This document shows positions 34,698-64,000 of a stretch of 64,000 nt of DNA, piece after piece. The stretch lies in the NCBI RefSeq assembly GCF_058153355.1, contig NZ_CM177019.1; one strand, written 5' to 3'. Under the pieces are notes generated by a model, which was not told the origin of the DNA, did no database searches, and saw nothing but the letters and a program-made list of their open reading frames with translations. Position numbers and translations under genes: made by a program. The number at the start of each line of letters is the position of its first letter. Position 1 is the stretch's first letter.

Positions 34698-34749
34698 AAA
34701 TTCAATCAATTACACATCATTAAGTCAGTGACAAAAATCACACTTGGAA

Positions 34750-35775
34750 TTACTTGGAATATTTTCTTGGAATATTTTCAGGTAACGGGACATCAAGTGT
34801 CGGTGAAACTTTAACCTTCCTGTCATAGATTAGCACTTGCCCCTCGGTTTTGTGACCAGAGAAAAGTTGCTTATCCCGACTGCTTCCTTCATAGTCTGAA
34901 ATTCCTTTCGCCTTCAGATCATGAAAGGTGAAGTCGGTTAAAATACCTGAAATTTTGCCTGCGCGATTTCTTGCTTCTACCCACATTTCGTTAAAGCCTT
35001 TGTACATATATCGGTTGCCGTATTGATTGCTGATTACATAGGCGGATGTTGGTAACTGTTTTGCTTTTTCGATCGCCGCCTGTAATCGTGGACTCCATGC
35101 TTTTATCTGTTTTTTCCCTGTTTTCCCTTGCTGGATAAAGATCCCGTCGTTTCCAATCTGCTCCCATTTCAGCGATAACACATCGGAAACCCTCGCTGCA
35201 CACAGATAGGCAATTTCCATTGCGATAAAAACAGGAAGAGGTGCAACGCTTAATACTGCCTGGTATTCTTTGTCGGTTACATATCGTTCCCGGTTTTTGG
35301 CCTTGAATTTACTTACACCTGCACATGGGTTAGCCTTCACGTACCCTCGCTCATACCCCCAACTGTAAACGCGGGACATACTGCTTTTTTCATGGTTGGC
35401 TTGCGTTTTACTCTGTTCCCCTCTCTTGTCCATGTATCGACGGATGTGTTCTGGTTTTATGGAATCTGCCGGCACCTTACCGAATACGGCAAGCAACTTT
35501 TTTTGATGTTGCAGATAATCTTTTTGTGTTCTTGGACTGAGGTCACTGTAATAGGCGCTGGCGAGGAATTTTTCCCACAAGCGACCGAATGTCATTGCAC
35601 GATCGCGATTATTTACAGTTTCCTCATACTTTTTCCATAAAGCAGCTAAACCATCCTTGATGGCGGTTAGTGTTACAGATTCTCTGGATGTTGGTTTCCA
35701 TACATAACTATATTTATTTGGGTATACATTTGGAGGTAATTTTTCGTGTTCAGGATTTTTCCTTCGTCTTCCCAT
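34750..35775 (-). CDS. int: phage tyrosine integrase
   Basis: 341-aa ORF abutting the tRNA-Ser 3' end with an excisionase immediately upstream. Confidence 0.75.
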   Translation of the reverse strand: MGRRRKNPEHEKLPPNVYPNKYSYVWKPTSRESVTLTAIKDGLAALWKKYEETVNNRDRAMTFGRLWEKFLASAYYSDLSPRTQKDYLQHQKKLLAVFGKVPADSIKPEHIRRYMDKRGEQSKTQANHEKSSMSRVYSWGYERGYVKANPCAGVSKFKAKNRERYVTDKEYQAVLSVAPLPVFIAMEIAYLCAARVSDVLSLKWEQIGNDGIFIQQGKTGKKQIKAWSPRLQAAIEKAKQLPTSAYVISNQYGNRYMYKGFNEMWVEARNRAGKISGILTDFTFHDLKAKGISDYEGSSRDKQLFSGHKTEGQVLIYDRKVKVSPTLDVPLPENIPRKYSK

Positions 35776-35978
35776 CAGATCGCACCAAAATTCGGCTCTA
35801 CCTTGCGTGGTGGTAAAGTTTTATTGCAGGTAAATAGATCCCGGCTGACAATCGGTTTGCCACTACGATTGGTATAGAACGGAAGCCCGTTTTCCATTAA
35901 CCATTTTCGCTGGTGGCTTGCATATTTGCAGCCCGTTAATATTAGCAATTCATCTTCGGTTAAAAATAAGCTGCTCAT
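35775..35978 (-). CDS. xis: excisionase (Xis)
   Basis: 67-aa ORF overlapping the integrase start. Confidence 0.6.
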   Translation of the reverse strand: MSSLFLTEDELLILTGCKYASHQRKWLMENGLPFYTNRSGKPIVSRDLFTCNKTLPPRKVEPNFGAI

Positions 35979-36036
35979 AGCTATATCTCATAACCGCCGC
36001 TAACTATATGCGGTTAGCGGCGAGCAGGGTTGAACA

Positions 36037-63134: not shown

Positions 63135-63218
63135 ATCCACTGGAACTGCGACGGGTGGCTGTTTCGCAGTTTACAGAACTGGAAGCCGAGGCCGTCCGCA
63201 TTAACGAGGAGATGAAGC

Positions 63219-63962
63219 ATGGCTGACAGTTTTCAGCTGAAGGCGATCATCACTGCCGTGGATAAGGTGTCGGCACCGCTGAAGGGAATGCAGCGCCAGC
63301 TGAAAGGCTTTAAAAAAGAGTTTGCCAGCCTGTCACTGGGCGCAGCGGGTGTCGGAACCGCAGTACTGGGGGCGCTGGCGCTCCCGGTCAAATCTGCCAT
63401 TGCCCTTGAATCAAAAATGGCGGATGTCCGGAAAGTGGTGGATGGTCTGGATACGCCGGAAGCGTTTAAGGCAATGACGGAACAGGTGCGCGACCTGTCG
63501 ACAGAACTGCCCATGTCGGCGGAAGGTATCGCCGAAATCGTGGCGGCGGGTGGTCAGGCGGGCATTGCCCGTGACGAGCTGATGCAGTTTGCGCGGGATG
63601 CTGTGAGAATGGGGGTGGCATTCGATACCACGGCAGACGAGTCCGGCCAGATGATGGCACAGTGGCGCACTGCGTTCAAACTGACTCAGGATGAGGTTGT
63701 GGGGCTGGCTGACAAAATCAACTTTCTCGGCAACACCGGTCCGGCTAATGCGAAAAAGATTTCTGATGTTGTGACCCGTATTGGCCCTTTAGGCAGTGTT
63801 GCGGGTGTGGCCTCCGGAGAGATCGCCGCAATGGGGGCAACCATTGCCGGAATGGGGGTGGAGTCAGAAATTGCTGCGACGGGGATAAAGAATTTTATGC
63901 TGTCGCTGACAGCGGGGAATTCTGCCACCAAATCGCAGAAAAAAGCGCTTCGCCTGTTGTAA
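63219..63962 (+). CDS. tape measure protein-like (N-terminal-type domain only, 247 aa)
   Basis: Gly/Ala-rich helical protein in the tape-measure position; ends with a stop followed by a strong hairpin. Confidence 0.5.
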   Translation: MADSFQLKAIITAVDKVSAPLKGMQRQLKGFKKEFASLSLGAAGVGTAVLGALALPVKSAIALESKMADVRKVVDGLDTPEAFKAMTEQVRDLSTELPMSAEGIAEIVAAGGQAGIARDELMQFARDAVRMGVAFDTTADESGQMMAQWRTAFKLTQDEVVGLADKINFLGNTGPANAKKISDVVTRIGPLGSVAGVASGEIAAMGATIAGMGVESEIAATGIKNFMLSLTAGNSATKSQKKALRLL

Positions 63963-63995
63963 TGCCAGTCAGTTAAGCAACTGACTGGCTCTTTT
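63963..63995 (+). terminator. hairpin GCCAGTCAGTT-AAGC-AACTGACTGGC followed by T-run
   Basis: 11-bp perfect stem immediately after the tape-measure-like ORF stop. Confidence 0.5.
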
Positions 63996-64000
63996 TCGGG

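Follow-up and report, generated by a model that had tools for sequence, protein, structure and literature searches.

The 64,000-nucleotide stretch of contig NZ_CM177019.1 (assembly GCF_058153355.1) analysed here, called the window below, is an Escherichia/Shigella-type chromosome segment, in which amn, shiA, yeeO, and yeeJ-like genes are 97-98% identical to those of E. coli genomes. From position 34698 to its end, the window is a prophage lying directly 3' of serU, the gene for tRNA-Ser(CGA). The neighbourhood matches the asnT-mtfA-serU-yodB order of K-12, and divergence from the phage-free K-12 serU locus begins right after the CCA end of the tRNA gene. Modules were identified by Pfam, NCBIfam, PHROG, and PDB sequence searches, and RNAs by Rfam and ARAGORN. 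According to the open reading frame (ORF) list and Pfam, the gene order is int-xis, recombination, immunity, O/P replication, nin/Q, lysis, head, and tail, which is of the lambda type. The attachment region and the tail genes, the latter ending in an insertion sequence (IS), contain the following features.

34608-34697, plus strand: serU, tRNA-Ser(CGA), the integration target, gene intact (ARAGORN; Rfam tRNA, 57 bits)
34636-34697, plus strand: attL core of 62 bp, the 3' part of serU, spanning the anticodon stem through the CCA end
34743-34773, plus strand: three direct copies of CTTGGAAT (34743, 34753, and 34766), adjoining the core and overlapping the int 3' end (read from the sequence; 14-mer repeat)
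34750-35775, minus strand: tyrosine integrase, 341 aa (Pfam Phage_integrase, Phage_int_M, and SAM-like domains)
60956-63134, plus strand: contractile tail genes for the sheath (498 aa; Pfam PF04984), the tube (117 aa; PF10618), and the tail assembly chaperone
63219-63962, plus strand: tape-measure gene, cut to 247 codons, with a TAA stop from the first three IS4 bases (TIGR01760, PF10145)
63960-64000: terminal 41 bp of IS4, transposase oriented leftward, within the tape-measure gene

Our results make it very likely that this is a temperate phage genome of lambda organisation that sits in serU and has been disabled by IS4 in its tape-measure gene. The tail genes follow the phiP27/SfV-type order of sheath, tube, chaperone, and tape measure. 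The sheath protein shares 97.8% identity with that of phiP27, 82.5% with that of SfI, and 36% with that of Mu, and matches the sheath in PDB entry 9khy (E 7e-84). In the tape measure, homology to full-length genes ends exactly at 63959, which leaves 247 of about 649 codons (38% of the length; intact homologues have 1950 nt). The adjoining IS4 end is unique in the window and identical at 41 of 41 bases to two annotated IS4 copies with otherwise unrelated flanks. Three independent short-read assemblies (Logan; SRR8656992, SRR31441161, and SRR28786219) encode this truncated 247-aa product identically, and their contigs break at the IS; the junction is therefore not an assembly error and is common to a lineage. 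The tape-measure::IS4 junction was absent from 5,426 complete E. coli genomes, the GTDB species representatives (exact matches), and IMG/VR. The preliminary description had recognised the sheath/tube contractile tail, in agreement with the sheath and tube families, the chaperone, and the tape measure found here. It had also reported no tnpA/tnpB or second IS copy. No transposase gene is visible in the window, but an IS4 end does interrupt the tape measure, and this end had been missed, together with PaaA2-ParE2 in the immunity operon and the isrK/C4/Rha module.

Wherever an ORF from int through the tail assembly chaperone was compared with annotated relatives, its length was that of the intact homologue; the tape measure is the sole exception. 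The tape-measure protein is essential for the assembly of long tails. Because IS4 cuts this gene, the prophage is probably defective and unable to make infectious particles. Its present state would be that of a recently inactivated prophage without tail assembly, in which a phiP27/SfV-type contractile tail is otherwise encoded.

The exact coincidence of the end of tape-measure homology with the IS4 end would also be seen in a truncated remnant, in which IS4 borders a deletion or rearrangement, mediated by the IS, that cost the prophage its distal tail genes and attR, with no phage DNA after the IS. IS-linked decay and rearrangement are common at serU in relatives: FDAARGOS_944 carries ISEc60 twice, the strain 190 tape measure contains an IS66, and the right end in PE164 is rearranged. 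However, the other visible genes are intact where compared, which suggests a recent and simple event rather than a remnant, and IS4, an element of about 1.4 kb, usually transposes in a simple manner that leaves a target duplication of 11-13 bp. A remnant is unlikely, although it deserves serious attention. The opposite view, that the prophage is fully functional and inducible, was implicit in the preliminary description and would suit the full-length ORFs and the intact appearance of the integrase, att core, cos-like site, and lysis cassette, but a tape measure reduced by IS4 to little more than a third makes it highly improbable.

The disabled prophage reading is supported at its left end by strain 190 of E. 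coli. The serU prophage of that strain has the same attL as the window and an integrase region with 97.6% DNA identity over 34698-37149, and a repeat of the 62-bp core is present as attR on the yodB side of its prophage (L007 43369-43430). Since this serU repeat bounds the strain 190 prophage, the core in the window was set at 34636-34697. In strain PE164, where the right end of the prophage is rearranged, no attR repeat was found, and strain 190 was used instead. All five attL copies compared show G...C as the variable-arm pair of the tRNA, and the K-12 attB and the strain 190 attR show A...T. This distribution indicates that the resident tRNA owes its 3' part to the phage, and that strand exchange took place 5' of 34657, within the anticodon stem-loop. 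The att core does not recur within the window, so attR, if it exists, lies outside it, as expected from the earlier statement that the phage end is beyond the window. In the proposed scheme, the tyrosine integrase would insert the phage into the 3' part of serU by recombination within the core common to phage and host; the tRNA would be rebuilt at attL with its phage-derived 3' part, and the displaced bacterial copy would stand at attR. The expected attR would consist of the serU 3' segment with the A...T variant, followed by CTTTATCAATGACTTATC and yodB.

The integrase has 341 aa versus 346 aa in FDAARGOS_944, and is 99% identical to that copy, which is annotated as intact. Its translation contains the R...HxxK...H...Y motifs, and the region of the catalytic Tyr is kept. 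From their position next to the core, the CTTGGAAT copies may be arm-type sites of the integrase. A 13-bp tandem duplication, CTTGGAATATTTT, occurs in two copies at 34753-34779, at the int 3' end.

Eight known E. coli phages and prophages jointly cover 98% of 34698-63959 at a mean identity of 94.5%, and the best-matching donor alternates across about 20 segments. Together with the junction at the CCA end, this bears out the mosaic prophage at tRNA-Ser(CGA) that had been described. The lambdoid immunity, replication, and Q genes named in that description were recovered by Pfam as a helix-turn-helix (HTH) repressor/Cro-like pair, YdaT, a DnaT-domain O-like protein, a lambda-P-like protein, and PF03589, and its phage-21-type lysis cassette as a PF04971 pinholin, a signal-anchor-release (SAR) endolysin, and Rz/Rz1. 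No single phage record or complete E. coli genome covers at least 80% of the element. The serU prophages of strains 190 and PE164 are the best match for int, the exonuclease, and dicB, and the ompW prophage (Br190) for the Rha module, methylase, and tail genes. FDAARGOS_944 is the best match (95-98%) for the immunity region, lysis cassette, terminase, and most of the portal gene (to 56939), while the replication, nin, and Q regions are best matched by other relatives. Phage phiP27 shares 55637-63959 (portal to tape measure) at about 95%, and also the methylase region and the HNH/cos segment. This precise combination of modules is absent from the 5,426 complete E. coli genomes; every piece is known there, and known pieces in an unseen combination are the pattern expected of lambdoid mosaics. 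A junction of two elements, in which an early-region remnant at serU would abut an unrelated phiP27-type late cluster through recombination between tandem prophages, could account for the switch of best-match donors at the lysis/late boundary and for the fact that phiP27 itself has only the methylase and late regions in common, but it is the least credible explanation, given the single canonical lambdoid order (int, early, Q, lysis, cos, head, tail), uninterrupted by any att site, integrase, or junction scar, the similar int-to-tail arrangement of FDAARGOS_944 at the same site, and the module exchange that defines lambdoid mosaics.

The serU element is an ordinary one. Both its integration site and the mosaic class to which it belongs, lambdoid/phiP27-SfV, are known, and an IS4 insertion has probably disabled it recently. 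Some 29 kb of the window can be assigned to a known Escherichia/Shigella prophage class, with the serU att core set at 62 bp. The cargo and regulators identified are two toxin-antitoxin pairs, an orphan methylase, and an antirepressor gated by small RNAs. The significance beyond annotation is slight.

The serU prophage of the closest relative, FDAARGOS_944 (NZ_CP065613.1, 624195-673741), which is adjacent to ipaH in a record of the Shigella/enteroinvasive E. coli (EIEC) type, has the same integration site and a similar int-to-tail organisation. Its ParE/PaaA2/HTH-repressor, cro, and YdaT region has 95% DNA identity to the window, and its class II holin, RrrD-type lysozyme, Rz, HNH, P27-type terminase, head, and sheath/tube tail genes have 94-98%. 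However, it is without the isrK/C4/Rha module, its replication genes, nin region, and Q are different, and its Q-to-lysis interval has tRNAs in place of the methylase. It is also damaged differently: ISEc60 sits in its portal and sheath genes, Q and TerL are frameshifted, and the tape measure is intact. A frameshifted ipaH effector gene (L012, NZ_CP065613.1, 48199-49547) comes after this prophage, and the record, labelled E. coli, for this reason looks Shigella/EIEC-type. By analogy, the right end of the present prophage, beyond the window, might carry similar ipaH-type cargo.

The Stx2e phage phiP27 (NC_003356) is syntenic with the methylase and the whole late region (HNH, cos to tape measure) at 90-95% DNA identity, whereas its integrase, att site, immunity, replication (DnaC/DnaB type), Q, and lysis genes differ, and it carries stx2e and two tRNA genes that are absent here. 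SfI, SfV, and SfII, the serotype-converting myoviruses of Shigella flexneri, similarly join a lambdoid early region to SfV/phiP27-type packaging and morphogenesis genes, and have a contractile tail and a cos site of 10 nt (PMC3636060). Lambdoid phages that combine SfV/phiP27-type structural genes with myovirus morphology form an established group (PMC3636060). SfI, SfV, and SfII differ from the present prophage in their integration site (thrW), their gtrABC genes for O-antigen modification, and their immunity regions.

The immunity region contains a repressor operon and a divergent Cro-like/YdaT pair.

41106-41145: OL-like pair of palindromes, starting at 41106 and 41131, 25 bp apart, just downstream of parE2
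41202-41492, minus strand: ParE2-type toxin (Pfam ParE_toxin; PDB 5cw7 ParE, E 6.7e-37)
41492-41686, minus strand: PaaA2-type antitoxin (Pfam PaaA2; PDB 3zbe PaaA2, E 1.4e-23)
41706-42206, minus strand: immunity repressor, 166 aa, ATG at 42206, first gene of the repressor-paaA2-parE2 operon (Pfam HTH_3 only)
42242-42281: OR-like pair of the same palindrome, starting at 42242 and 42267, 25 bp apart, in the 112-bp divergent intergenic region
42319-42581, plus strand: Cro-like HTH protein in the YdaS position (Pfam HTH_3)
42578-43003, plus strand: YdaT, cII analogue (Pfam YdaT_toxin; PDB 8bt1 YdaT, E 1.5e-76)

The N-terminal domain of the repressor is lambda-cI-like (PDB lambda repressor 1lmb, E 1.3e-9, residues 2-82), and its length equals that of the annotated homologue in FDAARGOS_944. 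An S24 peptidase domain (the RecA-cleavable C-terminus) was absent from the repressor in the Pfam search, and the lambda cI match is N-terminal only. The putative operator is the 15-bp palindrome AATAGC-N3-GCTATT, with 10 matches in the window against 1.8 expected, and four of these sites form two pairs flanking the repressor operon. As in lambdoid phages, the divergent repressor and cro genes have operator-like sites in common, and a second cluster lies beyond the repressor operon. The paired palindromes, taken as putative operators, have the OR/OL geometry of lambda and CP-933P.

In CP-933P, PaaR2, YdaS, and YdaT form a bistable switch, and the function of the YdaT family has been described (PMC8630535). 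The CP-933P/Sp12 region of E. coli O157:H7 (paaR2-paaA2-parE2 and ydaS-ydaT) resembles the present one in its operon layout, with PaaA2/ParE2 downstream of a regulator in the cI position, in the YdaT homologue, and in the OR- and OL-like clusters around the repressor operon. The repressor may be likened to PaaR2 by its operon position, while its N-terminal domain matches lambda cI. The CP-933P operator consensus, GTTTAGTAA, was rejected as a candidate here, with 10 matches versus 10.8 expected and none in the intergenic region. Because GTTTAGTAA is not enriched, operator specificity appears to differ from that of CP-933P, with AATAGC-N3-GCTATT in place of the published motif.

The left operon carries the recombination genes and an antirepressor module.

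35775-35978, minus strand: DUF4224 small protein at the position expected for xis (Pfam PF13986, E 1.9e-15)
36037-38508, minus strand: 823-aa exonuclease, ExoVIII/RecE-like in the middle, with a C-terminal Rv2179c-like 3'-5' exonuclease domain (Pfam PF16473, E 1.8e-67)
38589-38977, minus strand: DUF1482 (YdfD-like) gene and the DicB cell-division inhibitor (Pfam PF07358 and PF05358, the latter E 1.9e-37)
38988-39839, minus strand: Rha-domain antirepressor ORF, 283 aa (Pfam Phage_pRha, E 1.7e-30)
39600-39687, minus strand: C4 antisense RNA in the 5' part of the Rha ORF (Rfam 75.7 bits; gathering 45)
39712-39788, minus strand: isrK RNA in the 5' part of the Rha ORF (Rfam 61.5 bits; gathering 50)
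40011-40060, minus strand: DicF-like small RNA, in syntenic position between ydfC and dicB (Rfam RF00039, 38 bits, E 6.7e-6, below the gathering score of 48)
40393-40964, minus strand: ydfC, ydfB, and ydfA (DUF1391), small genes of a Qin-type dicBF operon (ORF translations; phrog_1744; annotation of syntenic relatives)

The isrK and C4 RNAs are located between dicB and the DicF-like RNA, directly upstream of the Rha domain. The order isrK/C4 then antirepressor is the arrangement of the P1 immI and Salmonella Gifsy-1 IsrK-AnrP modules. The likeness to P1 immI (c4-icd-ant) and to Gifsy-1 lies in an antirepressor-type (Rha) ORF preceded by C4-family and isrK RNAs; unlike in those systems, the module here sits inside a lambdoid dicBF-type left operon, and its control and target repressor are putative. 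A Pfam match to the 'Ash protein family' covers residues 14-108 of the Rha ORF, spanning the stretch that encodes isrK and C4. The antirepressor itself probably begins with a Met at about 39545; the 'Ash' part may be an RNA gene read as protein. The exonuclease also has a partial NCBIfam match to ExoVIII (283 bits, under the cut-off).

During lysogeny, the 166-aa repressor, co-transcribed with PaaA2-ParE2 in the CP-933P/Sp12 layout, would bind the paired 15-bp palindromes (OR-like and OL-like) and oppose the divergent Cro-like/YdaT pair. Since the repressor is without an autocleavage domain, an antirepressor route is proposed, in which the Rha antirepressor of the left operon, with isrK and C4 RNAs as its gate, would bring about exit from lysogeny in place of RecA-stimulated cleavage. 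SOS control of the antirepressor was rejected, as the sole CTGT-N8-ACAG match in the prophage lies at 47386-47401, at the parD start. This perfect palindrome, CTGTTGACGACAACAG, is formally LexA-box-like, and it is more likely a ParD operator than a LexA box. A further, rather doubtful proposal is that these parts form a working hybrid circuit, with a non-cleavable cI-like repressor tied to PaaA2-ParE2 addiction and released only via the isrK/C4-gated Rha, so that the IS4-disabled prophage would be kept by addiction as a domesticated regulatory or superinfection-immunity element and would not be a decaying virus.

Several points weigh against a lambda-organised prophage disabled by IS4 and regulated in this way. 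Only 41 bp of IS4 are inside the window, and the distal 12-14 kb expected from relatives (the rest of the tape measure, baseplate, fibres, and attR) are beyond it; in relatives L002, L008, and L012, a Mu-type baseplate (gp44-48 homologues) and tail fibres are present. The integrase has HxxK instead of the usual HxxR, and PGAP marks its orthologues as frameshifted in two other strains. In the immunity region, the operator motif departs from the published CP-933P consensus, and an N-like antiterminator was not identified, there being no N-family Pfam match among the early ORFs and no dedicated search having been made. The CTGT-N8-ACAG search found no LexA box near the antirepressor, nor was another inducing signal found there, and every regulatory step is deduced from homology and position.

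The replication, nin, and Q regions and the genes that follow them contain these features.

43069-44127, plus strand: O-like replication protein with a DnaT domain (Pfam DnaT)
ending at 44581, plus strand: lambda-P-like helicase loader (Pfam Phage_lambda_P; PHROG P-like helicase loader; annotation of relative L014)
44585-45034, plus strand: DUF977 (Pfam)
45031-47749, plus strand: nin-like region with small phage ORFs (DUF551, PHROGs of unknown function)
46773-47398, minus strand: second toxin-antitoxin pair, ParD/ParE, on the opposite strand in the nin region (moron; Pfam ParE_toxin, E 8e-11; ParD_antitoxin, E 2.3e-7)
47751-48806, plus strand: DUF968/YdfU (Pfam)
48807-49187, plus strand: RusA (Pfam)
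49184-50005, plus strand: Q antiterminator (PF03589, E 4e-50; PHROG 'anti-termination protein Q-like', E 1e-112)
50086-50115, plus strand: terminator-like hairpin, 80 bp after Q (hairpin and T-run at 50086-50105)
50110-50430, plus strand: phiP27 L23-like small ORF
50417-50434 and 51640-51656, plus strand: two more terminator-like hairpins, before the holin
50581-51633, plus strand: N6/N4 DNA methyltransferase (Pfam N6_N4_Mtase, E 1.9e-43; PADLOC MTase_II)

The O-like and P-like ORFs overlap by 212 nt (43916-44127) in different frames; PHROG P-family homology reaches into the overlap, and the P protein of a relative is annotated as shorter (153 aa). A frameshifted replication gene was considered and rejected, as L014 is annotated with two separate intact genes and the overlap is not decay. 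The ParD/ParE pair is likewise annotated in L014. The scan with a terminator consensus gave 8 sites versus 2.3 expected, and the hairpins after Q are candidate targets of Q read-through. In lytic growth, O/P-type replication would be followed by Q antitermination across the terminators downstream of Q. The segment with the L23-like ORF and the methylase has 90% DNA identity to phiP27 15567-17082. The methylase was the only PADLOC match to defence systems among the unannotated prophage ORFs, and no tRNA, stx, or other cargo is present between Q and the lysis genes.

The lysis, packaging, and head genes lie between the methylase and the tail.

51701-51916, plus strand: phage-21-type pinholin, 71 aa, dual start MKSM (PF04971, model positions 1-63 of 64, E 5.8e-35)
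51916-52413, plus strand: SAR endolysin (Pfam Phage_lysozyme; PDB 3hde and 4zpu, full-length and near-identical, E ~1e-108)
52398-52874, plus strand: Rz (PF03245, E 3e-52)
52630-52812, plus strand: Rz1 lipoprotein, 60 aa, embedded in Rz in another frame, lipobox LVVVGC
52917-53267, plus strand: HNH endonuclease (Pfam HNH)
~53329-53338: cos-like site CGCCCGCCAA, aligned to the annotated phiP27 cos at 8/10 bases
53415-58957, plus strand: packaging and head module with TerS (P27 type), TerL, a 60-aa membrane protein, portal, S78 protease, and HK97-family capsid (PF05065) (Pfam)
59002-60959, plus strand: head-tail connector, head closure, neck/tail completion, tail terminator, and DUF2635 (Pfam; PHROG)

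The lysis genes resemble the phage 21 cassette (S21, R21, Rz/Rz1) in the full-length match of the holin to the Pfam family 'Bacteriophage P21 holin S', the dual start, the SAR endolysin, and the embedded Rz1, and no difference from it is detectable at the sequence level. The N-terminus of the endolysin is a Gly/Ala-rich, SAR-type signal-anchor segment. PDB entry 3hde, labelled only 'Lysozyme' in the search output, is presumably the phage 21 enzyme. The packaging and head module has 94-98% DNA identity to FDAARGOS_944, Br190, and phiP27, with ORF lengths equal to those of intact homologues. TerS/TerL, the portal, S78, and the PF05065 capsid agree with the HK97-like head genes of the preliminary description, but the capsid is not close to HK97 gp5. 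It has PDB matches labelled 'HK97 family' (E 9e-72), the best of which are RcGTA-type capsids, and no chain labelled as HK97 gp5 itself was found among the PDB sequence matches at E <= 0.001. From these matches, 'HK97-like' appears valid at the fold or family level only. Lytic exit would use the phage-21 pinholin/SAR-endolysin/Rz-Rz1 cassette, with HNH-assisted cos packaging into HK97-family heads.

On the other side of serU, the window contains two neighbouring genes and an island.

33541-33616: tRNA-Asn, neighbour of mtfA and serU
33717-34553, minus strand: mtfA (Pfam M90)

An island of about 17 kb (16300-33540) adjoins tRNA-Asn, with a P4-type integrase at 32117-33481 (minus strand). The three ORFs at 20304-22004, 24853-26796, and 26799-27572 (all minus strand; 566, 647, and 257 aa) had no Pfam or PADLOC match, and they could be uncharacterised cargo beside a Gabija pair. 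In this pair, GajA (18094-20166) is full length, and GajB (16794-18122) covers only model positions 4-435 of 579 and appears C-terminally truncated. A second isrK and C4 pair is found at 27830-28022 (plus strand; 71 and 83 bits), on the strand opposite to the prophage copy, and the ORFs downstream of it (28076-28543 and others) had no Pfam or PADLOC match. After an IS66-family transposase ORF (21688-22893) comes a group II intron (to 24667), made up of Rfam domains D1-D4 (22917-23033), an ORF for a reverse transcriptase/maturase (23355-24587), and the 3' domains (24590-24667). In addition, an EFASI RNA motif (30299-30428, plus strand, 119 bits) lies upstream of an Integrase_1-family ORF at 30536-31423.

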